A DNA stretch of 57,661 nucleotides from Actinomycetota bacterium (GCA_027729805.1 JAQCEO010000004.1:1-57661); one strand, 5' to 3'; counted from the stretch's first letter, positions 6,495 through 57,661 are shown. A program made the numbers and translations. The notes: generated from the letters alone by a model not told the origin.

Positions 6495-6666
6495 CGACCC
6501 GCAGCACCCGAGCCCGCTCGTTCGGTCTTTTTGGCCATTTTTGATCGCCGGGCAGGTTTAACCGGGCCCGATCGCCGTAAATACGACAAAAAGGTCACCG
6601 CGACACGCACCAGTGGGGAGGGTGTGACTACCGGGACTGGTGGGTTTGGGTCGGTACGCTGCGAGG

Positions 6667-9207
6667 ATGGCTTCCCGCACGTCTGCTCCGGCGCGCTCGC
6701 GCACCGGGCGCGGATCTTCCCCCGCTAAAAAACGGCGAACCCACCGTGCCCCAGCGCCCAAAAGCGGGTCGGGGCCGGCAGCCCGTTTGATTTTTGCCAG
6801 CGGGCGGGCGGTCCGCGGTGGCTATTTGGCCGTGGCACATGGCATCGGCTTTGTCACTCGAAGTATCGGGTCTGGTGCCCGCGGTCTAGACCCGGCGCAG
6901 CGCCGAGATGGGCTGGCCCTATCTTTCATCGCCGCCGCCGCAATTTTACTGGCCGGTACCTGGTTTGGGGTTGCGGGATGGTTCGTGTCCTGGGCGGCCA
7001 TGTTGGCGCAGGCCCTATTCGGTGCGCTGGATTGGGTGTTACCGATCGTGCTGCTGGCCTTGGCCTGGCGCTACTTGCGGCACCCAGATAATGGAGCGAC
7101 GACCGGGCGCATGTTGATCGGGGGGGCAGCAGTGCTTGTCGCCCTAGTTGGCGGCTGGCACTTAATCGGTGGGGCGGCGACCCCAAGTGATGGCGCCGAG
7201 GCGATGAGTTCTGGCGGTGGGGTGATCGGCTGGGTGGCGACCGCACCCCTTGTTGCCGCGATCGGTCCAATCATCACGGGTCTTATTTACCTCCTGATCC
7301 TGATTTTTGGTGTCCTTGTTCTTACCGCGACCTCAATAAGTTCGGTACGCGCCAAACTTAGTGCTGGCTTTCGTGCGGTGGGCCGAATTGGCGCTATGGG
7401 CTCGGTATTTAAAAGGCGCAAACCCGCTCCGACGCTACCGGAGTTAGATTCGGACCAAGTCCTTGAGGAAATCGACGAAGACTTAGTCGAGGGCTTGGCT
7501 GATGGCTTTGCTGGAGATGAGCCAGTCACCACCCCGGTTGCCGAGGATGAGTTCCGGCCGGCGGCCGGCCTGATGGCCGGACTAGTTTCGACCAGCGCCA
7601 CCGTGCGCGCCGAGGTCGTAGCTGAGCCTGTTGACCATCCGGCCCGCCAGGAAACGGTCGCCCTTGCGCGTCCGGTGAATGCGGTATCGGCCAGTCGGGC
7701 GCCGCGGGTTGTTGAGCAGCTGCCGTTGGCGGGCAGTGTGGCTTATGTATTGCCGCCCGCGAACTTGTTGAAACCTGGCACCGAACATAAGACCGCTACC
7801 CGGGCAAATGATCAGGTCGTTTCGGCGTTGACCGAAGTGCTGGAGCAATTCGGCATTGATGCACAGGTGACCGGTTTCCTTCGTGGTCCCACCGTTACCC
7901 GCTATGAAATCGAGCTGGGTCCAAGTGTAAAGGTTGAGCGGGTCACGGCGCTGAGCAAGAACATCGCCTATGCGGTGGCCAGTGCCGACGTGCGGATCCT
8001 TAGCCCGATCCCGGGGAAGAAGGCAATCGGCATCGAGATCCCGAACTCAGACCGCGAGCTAGTTGCGCTGGCCGATGTCATACGCAGCAAAGCGTCGACC
8101 GGTGATCAGCATCCGATGGTGGGGGCGCTGGGTAAGGACGTCGAAGGTGGGTTCGTGGTCGCAAACTTGGCCAAAATGCCGCACCTCTTAGTTGCCGGCG
8201 CTACGGGGGCGGGTAAATCCAGCTGCATCAACGCCCTAGTTACCTCGATTCTCATGCGCGCAACTCCCGATGAAGTTCGCCTCATTCTGGTCGACCCAAA
8301 ACGGGTTGAGTTGAAGGCCTATGAGGGCGTGCCGCACTTGATAACACCGATCATTACCAACCCGAAAAAAGCCGCAGACGCGCTGCAGTGGGTTGTCAAA
8401 GAAATGGATCGCCGATACGATGATCTAGCCCATTACGGGTACCGCCATATCGACGATTTCAACAAAGCTGTAAAAAGTGGACGGGTGGAAGCACTCGCGG
8501 GCAGCGAACGCGTGTTGCACCCCTACCCATATCTACTGGTCGTCGTTGATGAGTTGGCCGATCTTATGATGGTGGCACCGCGAGATGTTGAAGATGCAAT
8601 CGTGCGGATCACCCAGTTGGCCCGCGCGGCCGGTATCCACCTGGTCCTCGCAACGCAGCGCCCGAGCGTCGATGTAGTGACCGGTTTGATCAAGGCAAAT
8701 GTCCCAAGCCGGCTGGCATTTGCCACTTCAAGCCTCACAGATAGTCGAGTCATCTTGGATCAACCTGGAGCCGAGAAACTTGTCGGCCAAGGCGACGGCT
8801 TGTTCCTACCCATGGGAGCGAATAAAAGCCAGCGTATTCAAGGCGCCTTTGTTTCGGAGAATGAAATCCGTGCAGTGGTGGCGCATTGCAAGGCGCAATC
8901 TGCGGCTGTCTACTTGGCTGAAGTGACCTCGGTAGCCAATGCTGGTGTCAAGGAAGTTGACGGTGATATCGGCAGCGACCTCGACGTGCTACTCCAAGCG
9001 GTTGAGTTGGTGGTGTCAACCCAGTTCGGATCGACGTCAATGCTGCAACGCAAGTTGCGGGTGGGGTTTGCTAAAGCCGGGCGGCTAATGGACTTGATGG
9101 AGTCACGTGGGGTGGTGGGGCCCAGCGAGGGCTCCAAAGCCCGGGAAGTACTGGTGAAACCAGATGAACTGCCGGAGATCTTGGCAATGCTCCGGGGCGA
9201 AAGCTAA
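6667..9207 (+). CDS. ftsK: DNA translocase FtsK
   Basis: N-terminal TM helices, Walker [10 protein letters not shown], Walker [21 protein letters not shown], gamma domain [24 protein letters not shown] 6667 preferred (TACGCT six nt upstream). Confidence 0.97.
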
Positions 9208-9320
9208 TCAGTAACGCCTAACTGATAACGCTCCGCACGTGCCCTAACTGGCGGAGAATGGGTCTAGCGCACCCGCCCTACCCGGGTTATGCTTCGGCAA
9301 CGATGTAGACCGGAGGTGCG

Positions 9321-9560
9321 ATGGGCGTTGGGGTAATCGTCAAGACGGCCCGGGAGGCAAAGGGCGTAAGCATCTCGGACTTAGCGGTCGCAACCAAGAT
9401 TCGCGAGTCGATGCTGTTGTCGCTGGAAGCAGATGATTTTGCTTGTTTCGGTGGGACCGTCTACGTACGGGGCCACTTGAAGGTAATTGCGGCCTATTTG
9501 GGCTTGGATCCGTTCGAATTGTCAAATGAATTTGCTGTGAAATACGCCGACTCGTTTTAA
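9321..9560 (+). CDS. RodZ-type helix-turn-helix protein, HTH domain only (79 aa)
   Basis: AREAKGVSISDLAVATKIRESMLLSLEADDF...YVRGHLKVIAAYLGLD matches the RodZ cytoplasmic HTH; position between ftsK and rimO; SD GGAGG upstream. Confidence 0.8.
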   Translation: MGVGVIVKTAREAKGVSISDLAVATKIRESMLLSLEADDFACFGGTVYVRGHLKVIAAYLGLDPFELSNEFAVKYADSF

Positions 9561-9748
9561 TCGACCGGATTCCTACGGGTCACCTGCTGATGTGTCCGTG
9601 TGTGCTGCTGTCTCATGGACAGACAGTGGTGCACAGCAGGAGTCTTCAGCAGATTGCTACACGAATTGCTACGTCCCCAGATCCTCCTGTCTCCTGGGTC
9701 GTGCAGTCGCTCATGTACTCCGGTTGTGGGTGAGCAACGGTGATGCTG

Positions 9749-10192
9749 CTACTGGATGAGGTCGTCGCTGGAGACGGTGAGTTCGGCAAGGACATCGGGT
9801 ATGGGCGTGACGCCGAGTCCCGGTCCCGAGGCGACGGTCATCATGCCGTCGGCGTCCATGACGAACGGCTCGGTCACGTCGCGGTTGAAGAATCGCGAGG
9901 ACGAGCTCGTGTCGCCGGGCAGGGTGAAGCCGGGCAGTGACGTCAGGGCGACGTTCGCCGCTCGGCCGATGCCGGTCTCGACCATTCCGTCGCACCCGAC
10001 AGGAATGCCACGCGCGACCGCAACGTCATGGATCGCCTTGGCACTGAGGTAGCCGCCCACCCGGCCGGCCTTGATGTTGACGATCTCGCAGGCGCCGTAG
10101 TCGATCAGGTTCTCGGCGGTGTCGGCTGAGAGCACCGACTCGTCAAGGCACACCGGCGTTTGCATTCGTTCGGCGAGCATCCTGTGACCCAA
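9749..10192 (-). pseudogene. menC: C-terminal fragment of o-succinylbenzoate synthase / N-acylamino acid racemase (enolase superfamily)
   Basis: GHRMLAERMQTPVCLDES, VNIKAGRVGG, GMVETGIGRAANVAL, LPGFTLPGDTSSSSRFF, GPGLGVTP. The N-terminal ~60% is absent and WCGG reads GCDG. Confidence 0.8.
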
Positions 10193-10274
10193 GGGGTGGG
10201 CGTAGGCCAGAGCCGTTCGTGTGCCATCCTCGTTAGCGCCACTGCACCCGCCATCGGAGGAACGATAGTTCGCT

Positions 10275-10790
10275 ATGACTCTGTCCACTGCCTTCCGCGC
10301 CTCTGGCATCGCTCTGCTCGCGGCAACTCTGGCAGCGTGCTCGGCATCGGATACGGCTTCGTCTGAGTCCCCTTTGCCGCAACCCACCGCCATCAGCATG
10401 ATCAACGGCGAGGTGCCGCCTGGGACGCCGACGAGCTTGGTCGAGGAAGTGACTTTGCTGACAGTGTCCGAGGATGGACGCGAAACCTTCATCTCCCGCA
10501 CCACTCGAGCACCCGGCACCCGAGCCCCTTTCCACTTCCATCCCAACGGCGGATCCACCTGCGTGGAGGCTGGCGAGATGACCCTGTACCTCGAGGGGGC
10601 AGAGCCGCTCACCGCCGGTCCTGGTGAGTGCTACTGGATGCCCGCCGGTCGCCCCATGACCGCATACAACAGCGGAAACGTCGATGTCGTCTCCATAGAA
10701 AGTTACAATTTTTCTGATGGCGAAAAAGTCTTCGACGCTGTCGAAGAGGTGCAACCCATTCCAGAGCATGGGGACCACGACGGATCCTGA
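10275..10790 (+). CDS. lipoprotein with cupin (double-stranded beta-helix) domain
   Basis: Signal peptide with lipobox LAAC; cupin motifs PGTRAPFHFHP...VEAGEMTL and GPGECYWMPAG; SD GGAGG upstream. Confidence 0.8.
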   Translation: MTLSTAFRASGIALLAATLAACSASDTASSESPLPQPTAISMINGEVPPGTPTSLVEEVTLLTVSEDGRETFISRTTRAPGTRAPFHFHPNGGSTCVEAGEMTLYLEGAEPLTAGPGECYWMPAGRPMTAYNSGNVDVVSIESYNFSDGEKVFDAVEEVQPIPEHGDHDGS

Positions 10791-10955
10791 GAGTCACCTC
10801 TTCGTCGCCCCGATCAGTGGGTTACGAAGCTCGTTGCGCGTCGATTCATTCCTTGGCATGGTGGCGAGGAACTTGAAGAGAATCGTTGGTATCAACGTAG
10901 GTGTCAAACAGCAGAGTCGGTTGCACCCTGATTCGTGATTTACCCAAAAAAATCG

Positions 10956-10983
10956 CGCGCCCGGAAGCACTCGAACCCTCAAC
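10956..10983 (-). pseudogene. tRNA 3'-end remnant (T-arm plus acceptor 3' strand)
   Basis: Minus strand GTT-GAGGG-TTCGAGT-GCTTC-CGGGCGC-G: canonical T-loop, T-stem with one mismatch, acceptor 3' strand and discriminator. Confidence 0.6.
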
Positions 10984-11054
10984 TGGCCGGGTTTAATCGA
11001 CCCGATCAACCACCGCTGACGACCAGCGCCACGGTACCTCCGTAGGCTGGGGCG

Positions 11055-12518
11055 ATGCCCCCGGCACCTGCCCGCACCGCACAAAGTGTCGCGCTAGTGA
11101 CATTGGGTTGTGCGCGCAATGAGGTCGACTCTGAGGAACTCGCTGGCCGGCTCACCGCCGCGGGTTGGACGGTCGTGGATGATCCGGCACTTGCCGATGC
11201 GGTCCTGGTGAATACCTGCGGATTTGTTGACGTCGCCAAGAAGGATTCGATTGACGCACTACTTGGTGTGGCAGCTCTGAAGAGTGAAATTGGTGGGCCT
11301 GGCGTGGTAGTGGCGGTGGGCTGTCTTTCGGAGCGGTACGGGCGTGAACTAGCTGCCGAACTACCTGAAGCTGACGCGGTATTGGGCTTTGATGATTATC
11401 CTGATATTGCCGAGCGGCTAAAAGCGATCGTGGCCGGTGATCGACCGCAGGCCCATCAACCAAAGGACCGGCGCACACTGCTGCCAATTTCACCGGTCGA
11501 TCGCCCAGCGGTTGCTGCCGCGATCCCAGGCCATGGCGAAAATGCGCCGGTAGCTGCGCCCGGGTGGCAGCCACCGATTCTGCGCCGCCGCCTTGACAGC
11601 AGCCCGGTGGCTCCGGTGAAACTGGCATCGGGTTGTGACCGCAGGTGCACCTTTTGTGCGATCCCGACATTTCGTGGGTCATATATTTCGCGGCCCGCCG
11701 CTGACATCATTGCCGAAATCAAGTGGCTCGTTGATCAAGGGGTGCAGGAAGTCATCTTGGTAAGTGAGAATTCGACCTCATACGGTAAGGATCTCGGCGA
11801 CCTTCGACTAATGGAGGGGCTGCTGCCGGCAATCGGCAACGAAACTTCGTTGGGGCGATTGCAGGTTGCATATTTGCAGCCGGCAGAGGTTCGCCCTGGG
11901 CTAATCGAGGCAATGGCCAATACCCCCGTGGTCGCACCGTATTTCGATTTGTCCTTCCAACATGCCAGTAGTTCGCTACTGCGGCGGATGCGCCGCTTTG
12001 GCGGTAGCGAGGACTTTCTGTCACTCATCGAGCGGATAAGGGAGCTAAGCCCAGAAGCCGGTATCAGAAGCAATGTCATAGTTGGTTTTCCGGGTGAGAC
12101 CCAAGCCGAGTTCGACGAATTAGTTGACTTTTTAAACAGGGCGCGGCTAGATGCCGTAGGGGTATTTGGCTATAGCGATGAGGAGGGCACCGAGGCGGCA
12201 ACCTTCGAAGGCAAATTGTCTAGCGAAGTAATTTCGGGCCGAGTCGAATTGATTTCCGCGATAGCCGAAGAAGTCATGGCCCAGCGTGCCGAGGATCGAA
12301 TTGGCACCACTGTGCAGGTCTTGGTCGAGGCCATTGAGATTGCGGACGATGGCGAGCCGACCGGGCGGGTAACCGGCCGCGCTGGGCATCAAGGACCCGA
12401 TGATGGTGCCACCATGATTGACGTCACAAGTGGCGACAACGTAATTCAAATCGGTGACTTCGTTGATGCCAATGTGGTCGATACCGAAGGGGTCGATTTA
12501 CTGGCGGAGCCGGTATGA
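11055..12518 (+). CDS. rimO: ribosomal protein S12 methylthiotransferase
   Basis: [21 protein letters not shown], radical [21 protein letters not shown]-terminal TRAM-like region. Confidence 0.95.
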
Positions 12519-14903: not shown

Positions 14904-16175
14904 ATGGCGACACAAATTGCCCTTTCGGTTGCTGCCGTCGCCGCTGTGCAAAAGCGCACCATCTGGGTGCTGTCGTCGGCGCAGGTATTAAGTGGCATTG
15001 CAATCGCTGGCGCGGTGCCTGTCGGCGCACTAATAGCCGCTTCAATTGCTGGGTCAGATGCCGCTGCTGGGTTGGCTCAAACATTTGGCATTGTGGGCTC
15101 AGCGCTAATTGCGTTGCCACTGGCCCAAATTGCCTTGAGTCGGGGCCGGCGGGTGGCGTTAAGCACCGGCTTCGGTATCGGTGCGGTGGGCGCAGTGATA
15201 ATTATTTATGGTGCGGTGCTGCGTAATCTGGCGCTGGTCTACCTGGGTTGCACCGTCTTTGGCGCAGCGTCGGCCGCCGGGTATCAAGCCCGCTATACGG
15301 CAATTGATCTGGCCCCAGCAGATCACCGTGCGCGCGCCCTTTCTTGGGTGGTGTGGGCGGGTACCATCGGGGCGGTACTTGGGCCAAATCTGTTGAATTT
15401 TTCCGGCTCGATCGGGATGTCACTTGGCCTACCGCAACTATCCGGGCCCTATATTGTCTCCGCAATCACCTTGGTTGCGGCTACCGTCGTTCTCTTTTTG
15501 TTTTTGCGGCCAGATCCCTATCTACTGGCTACCGCCAATCGCGCCGCCGAATCGGGTGTAGCCCCGCGCCCTAAGTTGCGTGACGCTCTAGGGCACGTGC
15601 GCGGGCGCCCCCGGGCCATCTTGGGCATCGCCGCGGTGGCGATCGGGCATGTGGTGATGGTGATGGTGATGGTGATGACGCCGATCCAGATGGCCCATGT
15701 TGATGTGTCCTTGCAAATCATTGGGCTGGTAATCAGCGTGCACGTGGCCGGCATGTATGCGTTTTCCCCGTTGGTTGGGTGGGGTGTCGACCGGCTGGGT
15801 CGAATTCAGGTCATAGTAATTGGGATTGGTATTTTGACCGCCGCCTGCATCACCGCCGGTTTGGCCCCGGGCGATAACACCTGGCAGCTGGGTATCGGCT
15901 TGTTCTTGCTGGGGTTGGGCTGGTCCTGCACACTGATTGCTGGGTCAACCATGCTGACCGATGAAGTGGCCGCGGCTGACCGGCCGGCGGTGCAGGGGCT
16001 ATCGGATCTGGTCATGAATGTCGCCGGCGGGGTTGGTGGTGCCAGCGCGGGGGTGATCGTGCTCCTCGCCTCGTATTCGGCCCTATGCGGGGCTTCGCTG
16101 GTGCCCCTAATCGGCCTCGGGGTGCTCGTTGCGCTCCCGGCGTGTCGTCGCCATTCGAACACCCGTTCGATATAG
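14904..16175 (+). CDS. MFS transporter
   Basis: About 12 hydrophobic helices, GRRVAL and DRLGR loop motifs, QARYTAIDLA; start uncertain (14865-14904). Confidence 0.9.
   Translation: MATQIALSVAAVAAVQKRTIWVLSSAQVLSGIAIAGAVPVGALIAASIAGSDAAAGLAQTFGIVGSALIALPLAQIALSRGRRVALSTGFGIGAVGAVIIIYGAVLRNLALVYLGCTVFGAASAAGYQARYTAIDLAPADHRARALSWVVWAGTIGAVLGPNLLNFSGSIGMSLGLPQLSGPYIVSAITLVAATVVLFLFLRPDPYLLATANRAAESGVAPRPKLRDALGHVRGRPRAILGIAAVAIGHVVMVMVMVMTPIQMAHVDVSLQIIGLVISVHVAGMYAFSPLVGWGVDRLGRIQVIVIGIGILTAACITAGLAPGDNTWQLGIGLFLLGLGWSCTLIAGSTMLTDEVAAADRPAVQGLSDLVMNVAGGVGGASAGVIVLLASYSALCGASLVPLIGLGVLVALPACRRHSNTRSI
16155..16170. promoter_or_regulatory. actinobacterial LexA (SOS) box upstream of recA
   Basis: TCGAACACCCGTTCGA matches TCGAAC-N4-GTTCGA perfectly. 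Confidence 0.85.
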
Positions 16176-30418: not shown

Positions 30419-30835
30419 ATGTCAATCGCAGCGCCTTTCCCAGCGCCTTTCCCAGCGCCCTTCCCAGCGCCCTTCCCAGCAAACCAGCGACACCGATCCA
30501 CGGCCAACGCCAGGCGGCCAGCAAACCGGCCCCTGCGGCTGACGATCCGGGGGCGGGTACTACTTCTGGTTGCCACGATTTTGGTCCTGTTCACCCTGGT
30601 AGTGGCTGCCGGTGGGTTCACGGCCGAAGCCACCGGTGAGGTACCCGGGCCGGGTGCAGGTCCGGTGGCCGCGGTGGTGGTCGTCCAAAAAGGTGAGTCC
30701 TTGTGGTCGATCGCGCAGCAGGTGGCGCCGGGGCATGATCCCCGGGAGATCGTGAGCCGAATCCGCGACCTAAATGGCCTAGCAGATGCCTTGGTCATTC
30801 CGGGCCAATCCCTAGTGGTTCCGGTCGTCAACTAA
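30419..30835 (+). CDS. membrane-anchored LysM protein (ChiZ/YneA-like SOS division inhibitor)
   Basis: LTIRGR plus TM helix, LysM VVQKGESLWSIA...IRDLNGL...IPGQSLVVP; divergent from lexA. Confidence 0.85.
   Translation: MSIAAPFPAPFPAPFPAPFPANQRHRSTANARRPANRPLRLTIRGRVLLLVATILVLFTLVVAAGGFTAEATGEVPGPGAGPVAAVVVVQKGESLWSIAQQVAPGHDPREIVSRIRDLNGLADALVIPGQSLVVPVVN
30429..30480 (+). repeat. 12-bp coding tandem repeat, 4.3 copies (APFP x4)
   Basis: CAGCGCCTTTCC x2, CAGCGCCCTTCC x2, then CAGC. Confidence 0.95.
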
Positions 30836-57575: not shown

Positions 57576-57661
57576 ATGGCATCGAAGAAGATTGCACCGA
57601 AGAAGGTTGCACCGAAGAAGGTTGCACCGAAGAAGGTTGCACCGAAGAAGGTTGCACCGAA
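57576..57661 (+). CDS. N-terminus of a basic protein with KKVAP repeats (truncated by window end)
   Basis: ATG 57576: MASKKIAPKKVAPKKVAPKKVAPKKVAPK... Confidence 0.7.
   Translation, partial: MASKKIAPKKVAPKKVAPKKVAPKKVAP
57584..57661 (+). repeat. 15-bp tandem repeat, at least 5 copies
   Basis: GAAGAAGATTGCACC followed by four exact GAAGAAGGTTGCACC copies; continues off the window. Confidence 0.97.

Follow-up and report, generated by a model that had tools for sequence, protein, structure and literature searches.

Probable off-target integration of a small, integrase-less tRNA-type element upstream of rimO in an uncultured aquatic actinobacterium

We analysed a 57,661-nucleotide stretch of Actinomycetota DNA (GCA_027729805.1, JAQCEO010000004.1:1-57661; hereafter the window) and found that one strain carries a 1,422-bp insert at the end of a gene with an HTH_25 (helix-turn-helix) domain, just upstream of rimO, at a site that is empty in co-occurring and other near-identical strains. 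When the ends of the insert are joined, they form a degenerate copy of part of a transfer RNA (tRNA) for arginine, tRNA-Arg(UCU). We consider it rather likely that a tyrosine integrase acting in trans put a circle with a decayed attachment site of the tRNA-Arg(UCU) type (attP), resembling a cis-mobilizable element (CIME), into a weak bacterial look-alike site (pseudo-attB). An earlier note, made from the sequence of the window, had proposed the off-target integration of a tRNA-type element at this place. This core idea holds, and the borders, the "repeats" and the crossover position given there do not.

Results

The insert is a strain-specific polymorphism with base-exact junctions

Contigs from an independent assembly (Logan) of five public metagenome runs that contain near-identical strains (X1 to X5, of which X3, X4 and X5 are estuary runs) were compared with the window, together with 390 genomes of the order and collections of phage, plasmid, genome contig (genome_contigs) and metagenome contig (metagenome_contigs) sequences. 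The features at the borders are as follows, where attR and attL are the junctions on the HTH_25 side and the rimO side of the insert, respectively.

9562-10983, no strand: the true insert, 1,422 bp, delimited by joints that skip 1,422 bp and by relatives in which the site is empty
9556-9570: the left "15-bp repeat", made of host TTTAAT (9556-9561) and insert CGACCGGAT (9562-9570), as resolved by the empty-allele joint
9562-9581, minus strand: one half of the putative attP, GACCCGTAGGAATCCGGTCG, equivalent to tRNA-Arg(TCT) positions 26-45 in the alignment of family tRNAs
10945-10983, minus strand: the other half of the putative attP, equivalent to tRNA-Arg(TCT) positions 46-72 (10983 down to 10957, GTTGAGGGTTCGAGTGCTTCCGGGCGC, 24/27 matching), followed by the discriminator and a run of seven T
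10984-11006, no strand: the putative host pseudo-attB, with a perfect 5-7-5 hairpin at 10988-11004 (CGGGT TTAATCG ACCCG) and the right 15-mer, all of it present in the empty allele
11007-11029, minus strand: host DNA upstream of rimO, which together with 10956-11006 completes a degenerate cloverleaf across attL that ARAGORN calls only at -ps80

The insert lies one base past the HTH_25 stop codon and 71 bp upstream of rimO. In contigs of X3, X4 and X5, position 9561 is joined straight to position 10984, and the same joint was found as a strain variant in X1 and X2, the runs that also hold the island and in which the empty form is the minor or the major one. The empty allele reads CGTTTTAAT directly followed by TGGCCGGGTTTAATCGACCCGATCAACCACCGCTGACG; nothing stands between the two sides, they share zero letters at the joint, and the host site neither gained nor lost bases. 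The filled form was found in a single 1,588-nt contig of X1 (9471-11058) that covers the entire insert with 0 differences, and it is therefore not an assembly artefact. When the runs were searched with the insert alone, only X1 and X2 contained it. All these results showed that the insertion is strain-specific.

The empty site expected of an insertion was present in same-genus species as well as in the near-identical strains; all same-genus species have the HTH gene next to rimO. In the empty allele, 29 nt separate the stop codon from a conserved ACCGCT motif, as they do in two other species of the genus (G002 and G008), indicating that the empty form is ancestral. The empty contigs in X1 and X2 bear linked single-nucleotide polymorphisms (SNPs) at 9501, 9502, 9509 and 11028, so they represent another lineage and not fresh excisants.

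The 15-bp repeats are not the borders of the insert

The earlier note had bounded the island by two 15-bp direct repeats, and these 15-mers are indeed present (TTTAATCGACCGGAT at 9556-9570 and TTTAATCGACCCGAT at 10992-11006, identical at 14/15 positions), the left one overlapping the TAA stop (9558-9560) of the HTH_25 gene. They failed as borders, since the empty allele skips 1,422 bp and not the 1,436 bp that separate the repeats. They failed equally as a duplicated crossover core. The right copy, like the 8 bases before it (TGGCCGGG), is pure host DNA found in the empty allele and begins 8 bp off the junction, while the left copy is a hybrid of 6 host and 9 insert bases, so the pair is not a duplication made by the insertion. 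The impression of a repeat arose because the hybrid attR resembles a neighbouring host unit, ATCGGGTCGATTAA, which is a second, adjacent look-alike. Taken alone, a 14/15 pair could well be due to chance: the window has 12 clusters of 15-mers that differ at no more than one position and lie within 2 kb of each other, compared with ~5 in Markov shuffles.

The joined ends of the insert rebuild a degenerate attP

ARAGORN at default settings found no tRNA gene in the window, and Rfam/Infernal at E<=10 gave neither a tRNA match nor any other credible RNA family in the region. Compared with the 48 tRNAs of the genome, the minus-strand tRNA-like stretch beside the right 15-mer matched tRNA-Arg(TCT) best, at 30/36 positions, and tRNA-Arg(TCT) was likewise the top match in relatives. 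The tRNA 3' half that had been assigned to the interior of the element was confirmed for 10957-10983 (tRNA positions 46-72), which belongs to the insert; the adjoining TGGCCGGG, counted with it at the time, is host. No displaced tRNA fragment lies beyond the island, as had been stated.

When the insert is closed to a circle, its ends read, on the minus strand, GACCCGTAGGAATCCGGTCG followed by GTTGAGGGTTCGAGTGCTTCCGGGCGCGCGATTTTTTT (GACCCGTAGGAATCCGGTCG followed by GTTGAGGGTTCGAGTGCTTCCGGGCGCGC immediately around the joint), and the tRNA likeness continues over the joint; the typical tRNA-Arg(TCT) of other family genera reads AACCGGTTTCTACCCGGTCGGTTGGGGGTTCGAGTCCCTCCGGGCGC. The left half consists of the anticodon-arm stems and positions 44-45, with a loop, TAGGAAT, that is not that of a tRNA. 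Against the family tRNA-Arg(TCT), positions 39-45 match 7/7 and the anticodon-stem strands 9/10. Positions 39-49, across the circle joint, are identical to tRNA-Arg(TCT) of three genera (g3, g6 and g27), and BLAST alignments with seven family genomes begin at position 39 and cross the joint. The stem in the host genus is CCTGT, not CCGGT, and therefore the element matches the tRNA of another genus better than that of its host. A terminator-like site coincides with the run of seven T on the minus strand, and the T stem carries a G53:G61 mismatch. Judged by these alignments, the tRNA copy is a degenerate attP rather than a working half-gene, and the break lies between tRNA positions 45 and 46 (45/46). 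Many tRNA-targeting integrases cut in the anticodon loop, and the crossover had been expected there; the junction maps to 45/46 instead.

The variant T-arm 21-mer, GGGTTCGAGTGCTTCCGGGCG, had 0 exact matches in genome_contigs. Its one match in metagenome_contigs was dismissed as chance, being inside a coding region without a tRNA.

The tRNA-Arg(UCU) gene is an integrase target in this lineage

The tRNA-Arg(UCU) gene is a real integrase target in the lineage. In one relative (G012), a tyrosine integrase gene ends ~55 nt from the 3' end of tRNA-Arg(TCT). Partial tRNA 3' copies, the scars of islands, occur in three others (G010, G192 and G002), with identity starting at position 39 (36 or 39 in G002). 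This scar boundary, between positions 38 and 39, is 7 nt from the junction at 45/46, suggesting a 7-bp overlap that would comprise positions 39-45.

In the genome that contains the window, a ~7-kb island follows tRNA-Arg(TCT) on contig C25 (12487-19785; locus L022 1488-8786) and ends in an exact 38-nt copy of the tRNA 3' part. The integrase of this island (15823-16152) retains the C-terminal third only, with the arginine of HxxR replaced, and past the distal tRNA copy there is another integrase remnant (C25 12487-12588), interrupted by an in-frame stop. These remnants suggest a tandem array of decayed elements. When a tRNA-Arg-linked integrase was used in a tblastn search, matches were obtained on contigs C25 and C53 only. 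The C25 island and the insert on C7, the contig that forms the window, were covered to equal depth (~9-10 vs 13-15 for the flanks in X1, and ~6-7 vs 25-28 in X2), indicating that both are in the same strain. The X3 and X5 strains have different DNA after tRNA-Arg(TCT), and the site is a strain-variable hotspot.

Further features were observed at tRNA genes and in the C25 island. The C25 island also holds a family-A DNA polymerase fragment, an amine-oxidase fragment and two large open reading frames without a Pfam match. On contig C42 (25253-25954), a gene for a 407-aa tyrosine integrase directly adjoins tRNA-Thr(CGT); this locus is probably another integrative element, possibly an intact one. 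Besides its native copy, genome G009 has a second tRNA-Arg(TCT)-like gene (C264:2910-2981), 89% identical and possibly element-borne.

The host site resembles attP weakly and completes a chimeric cloverleaf

The target was not the cognate tRNA gene, since the true tRNA-Arg(TCT) gene is on C25. Around the joint, attP has AATCCGGTCG followed by GTTGA, and the host has AACCCGGCCA followed by ATTAA; 10/15 positions match and all mismatches are transitions. The nominal p for this likeness is ~1e-3, for a comparison window picked after the fact. Against the tRNA itself, the host site matches at 9/14 positions over 32-45 and at ~12/25 over 30-54 (hand count). At positions 39-45, attL has the host version, CCGGCCA, and attR has the element version, CCGGTCG. 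The proposal that an element with a tRNA-type attP entered a non-tRNA site is supported.

On the minus strand, the cloverleaf across attL (10956-11029) takes its 5' part from host DNA, and it has 6/7 acceptor pairs, a D stem of 4 bp and an anticodon stem of 5 bp. ARAGORN labelled it "tRNA-Asn(att)". Cloverleaf compatibility as good as that of the host 5' part was found at 189/578,538 genome positions (0.03%). The structure lacks features of a functional tRNA gene: position 33 is G (no U33), 53:61 is G:G, there is no nucleotide 26, and the variable loop is 7 nt long. The filled allele has G at 11028, the second position of the pseudo-acceptor stem, and all empty alleles (X1-X5) have A; the pair is thus C:G in the filled allele and would be U:G in the empty ones. 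The cloverleaf is probably due to chance plus the sequence preference of the integrase.

The insert carries a foreign, mosaic cargo and no recombinase

The interior of the insert contains the following features.

9749-10198, minus strand: menC-like 3' fragment of the enolase superfamily, C-terminal ~145 aa, matching Pfam MR_MLE_C at profile positions 83-218 only
10275-10790, plus strand: 171-aa cupin with a lipoprotein signal (lipobox LAAC), matching Pfam Cupin_2; the frame looks intact
9653-9672, no strand: two exact copies of ATTGCTAC 12 nt apart, found by repeat search

The menC-like fragment has 87% nucleotide identity to genes of two other family genera, g27 and g20 (genomes G255, G109 and G260), compared with 55% amino acid and 71% nucleotide identity to the host's own copy on contig C36. 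Its G+C content at third codon positions is 0.85 vs 0.56-0.66 in host genes. The fragment is a pseudogene of foreign origin. The cupin lipoprotein gene is the sole apparently intact gene in the insert and has no second copy in the genome. Its homologues reach at most 66% identity, and the closest (loci L033-L036) are in ordinary chromosomal neighbourhoods without a tRNA or an integrase. The gene reads toward rimO, with no predicted plus-strand terminator downstream. Searched as a whole against the 390 genomes of the order, the insert had relatives for its menC-like and cupin parts only; the phage collection gave no match and the plasmid collection gave matches in the menC part only. The non-coding arms (9562-9748 and 10791-10983) had no relatives in the order genomes or in the phage, plasmid or contig collections. 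The cargo is foreign and mosaic, a gene fragment beside an unrelated gene.

No recombinase was found in the insert by Pfam scan, or by a PF00589 search of C7. A third copy of the short repeat of the left arm, matching at 7/8 positions (ATTCCTAC, 9569-9576), is the attP loop itself, so that GTAG[G/C]AAT occurs three times in the left arm on the minus strand; the copies are possible arm-type protein-binding sites.

Two other classes of mobile DNA were considered and rejected. An insertion sequence or transposon does not fit, as there is no transposase domain, the ends (CGACCGGATT at one side and CCCTCAAC at the other) are not inverted repeats, and the empty allele has no duplicated bases. An integron cassette was considered as the junction reads GTTGAGG directly after the cut, and was discarded because there is no attC, the cut is not between G and TT, and the ends are tRNA-derived.

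Discussion

How the insert may have arrived, and what speaks against it

In the reading that we favour, the insert would be a small remnant, without an integrase, of a family of integrative elements directed at the tRNA-Arg(UCU) gene. Its circular form would carry an attP in which the anticodon arm and the 3' half of the tRNA are present as a degenerate copy. Recombination of this attP with the weakly similar site one base past the HTH_25 stop would be carried out by a tyrosine integrase supplied in trans, the overlap region probably being positions 39-45, and the mismatched overlap would be resolved by replication. The host version of the overlap at attL and the element version at attR are the pattern expected from such a resolution. 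The absence of an integrase from the element agrees with the earlier note, whose further suggestion that the integrase was lost after entry was not borne out: because the interior is mosaic and only the 1,422-bp form was seen, the element was probably already a CIME-like remnant when it moved.

Several observations count against this reading. The insert itself encodes no tyrosine integrase, and no intact cognate integrase is present in the 96%-complete genome, where the C25 copies are truncated. The pseudo-attB, compared base by base, is a poor match to the true site (~12/25), and the crossover falls outside both the loop of the host 5-7-5 hairpin and the tRNA anticodon loop. The run search returned no circle joint and no other context of the insert, and the searched genomes and collections contained no related element that shares the arms or the T-arm variant. 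Finally, owing to the G53:G61 mismatch in attP, integration into a real tRNA would probably damage it, and the element may long have been a non-functional relic.

Alternative explanations

Some of these points would fit an att-bounded circle, or a unit of a tandem array, that was linearised in its tRNA-like core and then taken up at a break in the chromosome, through end joining or illegitimate recombination and without the action of a site-specific integrase at that site. Zero shared bases at either junction, a host site only weakly like the true attB and a genome without a cognate integrase agree with such a capture. We nevertheless regard it as unlikely, because the insertion is base-exact with no loss or gain at the host site, attP and host match at 10/15 positions around the joint with transitions as the only mismatches, and the break lies exactly 7 nt from the 38/39 boundary that recurs in other tRNA-Arg(TCT) island scars. 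It is improbable that the polarity was the reverse, with the filled allele the older one in the species and the empty alleles produced by precise integrase-mediated excision of an element that is still or was recently excisable. Filled and empty forms do occur together in the same two samples, and precise excision would restore exactly the empty sequence seen; but the empty contigs of X1 and X2 carry the linked SNPs of another lineage (9501, 9502, 9509 and 11028), all other species of the genus are empty with the same 29-nt spacer, and no circle joint was found.

The cloverleaf across attL could also be taken as the remnant of a former minus-strand tRNA gene between the HTH gene and rimO that was the true target and has since decayed. 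The pairing of the host 5' part with the 3' part of the insert (acceptor 6/7, D stem 4 bp, anticodon stem 5 bp), a fit equalled at only 0.03% of genome positions, and the ARAGORN call at -ps80 are in its favour. It is very improbable all the same: the empty allele has no 3' half, and the HTH coding sequence, 1 nt past the junction, leaves no room for a displaced one; relatives have no tRNA here, and their spacer has neither the hairpin nor the acceptor match; Infernal gave no tRNA match at E<=10; and U33 and nucleotide 26 are missing while the variable loop has 7 nt. That the whole arrangement is an assembly chimera would be conceivable for a metagenome-assembled genome in 92 contigs, and can be practically discounted, as the independent Logan assembly has both junctions in two samples with 0 differences and a 15-bp repeat matching at 14/15 is too short to mislead an assembler.

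Comparison with known systems

Integration at a look-alike site has a close parallel in ICEBs1 of Bacillus subtilis, an element with a tRNA-gene-specific tyrosine integrase that also lands at non-tRNA look-alike sites. Its secondary sites depart from the 17-bp attB at 2-12 positions, and replication of the mismatched overlap there leaves unlike overlap sequences at the left and right ends (Menard & Grossman 2013, PMC3715440), just as the insert has CCGGCCA at attL and CCGGTCG at attR. The two systems differ in that ICEBs1 is autonomous, 20 kb long and encodes an integrase, whereas the insert is 1.4 kb and has none; the crossover of ICEBs1 takes place within a 5-7-5 inverted repeat, in its 7-bp spacer, whereas the junction of the insert is outside the host hairpin and the anticodon loop; and the ICEBs1 sites came from laboratory selection without attB, whereas the insert is a polymorphism of a natural population.

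CIMEs are decayed remnants of integrative and conjugative or integrative and mobilizable elements that keep their att sites (Guedon et al. 2017, PMC5704250). The insert is like them in having no integration or transfer genes and a decayed cargo between att-type ends; the recombinase is absent and both att halves are present at its ends. CIMEs move by the integrase of another element with the same site specificity, which for the insert would be the source of the activity in trans, and they accrete in tandem at a tRNA gene, as in this genome at C25. Unlike CIMEs, which sit at the primary site beside the mobilising element, the insert is alone at a secondary site.

The attP with a tRNA 3' part and a terminator-like T run, by which integration would rebuild the gene, is a feature shared with tRNA-gene islands, and tRNA-Arg(UCU) is an occupied target in this genome as well as in relatives. 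Islands of actinomycetes at tRNA genes, such as pSAM2, SLP1 and mycobacteriophage L5, have identity blocks from the anticodon arm to the 3' end, and Williams's 2002 survey reportedly sorts tRNA-gene integration into sublocation classes. The insert departs from these islands in its degenerate tRNA copy, with a non-tRNA loop and the G53:G61 mismatch, in a crossover at 39-45/46 rather than in the anticodon or T loop, and in a target that is not a tRNA gene.

Significance

This is a known kind of off-target integration, here well documented, and its mechanism is not new. Most studies of tRNA-specific integrases acting off target have dealt with laboratory strains. In this case, filled and empty alleles with base-exact junctions coexist in a natural population, that of an uncultured aquatic actinobacterium, and the crossover could be placed at tRNA positions 45/46, with an overlap of probably 39-45, without an experiment. 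If our reading is right, even a 1.4-kb element without an integrase can reach a new site. The case also showed that direct repeats flanking an island can mislead, as here they reflect the likeness of attP and host site and do not mark the borders of recombination. The annotation gains one possibly functional gene from the insert, the cupin lipoprotein gene, just upstream of rimO.

Two bolder ideas about the site and the element seem to us distinctly improbable. One, built on the cloverleaf across attL and the base at 11028, is that the host site is more than a chance look-alike; integrases of this family, or selection once the element is in place, would then prefer sites at which a transcript with the shape of a tRNA is restored. 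The other is that ~1.4-kb integrase-less mini-circles are a regular, mobile, cassette-like currency of the tRNA-Arg(UCU) islands in these aquatic actinobacteria.

Setting and other features of the window

The window is one contig (C7) of a 2.03-Mb genome with 58.6% G+C. The runs that contain its sequence are aquatic and estuary metagenomes, and the host is an uncultured aquatic actinobacterium. The local gene order is ftsK (6640-9207), the HTH_25 gene, the island region, rimO, pgsA and cinA. The genes on either side of the insert are as follows.

9321-9560, plus strand: left flank, a 79-aa HTH_25 gene (Pfam PF13413, E 8e-19), collinear in same-genus relatives
11055-12518, plus strand: right flank, a rimO-type radical-SAM methylthiotransferase gene (Pfam UPF0004, Radical_SAM and TRAM)

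The HTH_25 protein is a RodZ-like N-terminal domain only, and its TAA stop is unaffected by the insertion. In the spacer between ftsK and the HTH gene (window 9209-9250), all public contigs differ from the window by four SNPs at 9209-9241 and by 12 additional bases (GATCAGCTAGCC) that follow 9250; the window thus has a spacer variant that is absent from these assemblies, even from that of the run that covers the window best. Short tandem arrays with a 15-nt period and a 12-nt period were found at 57583-57661, the end of the window, and at 30429-30476, respectively.

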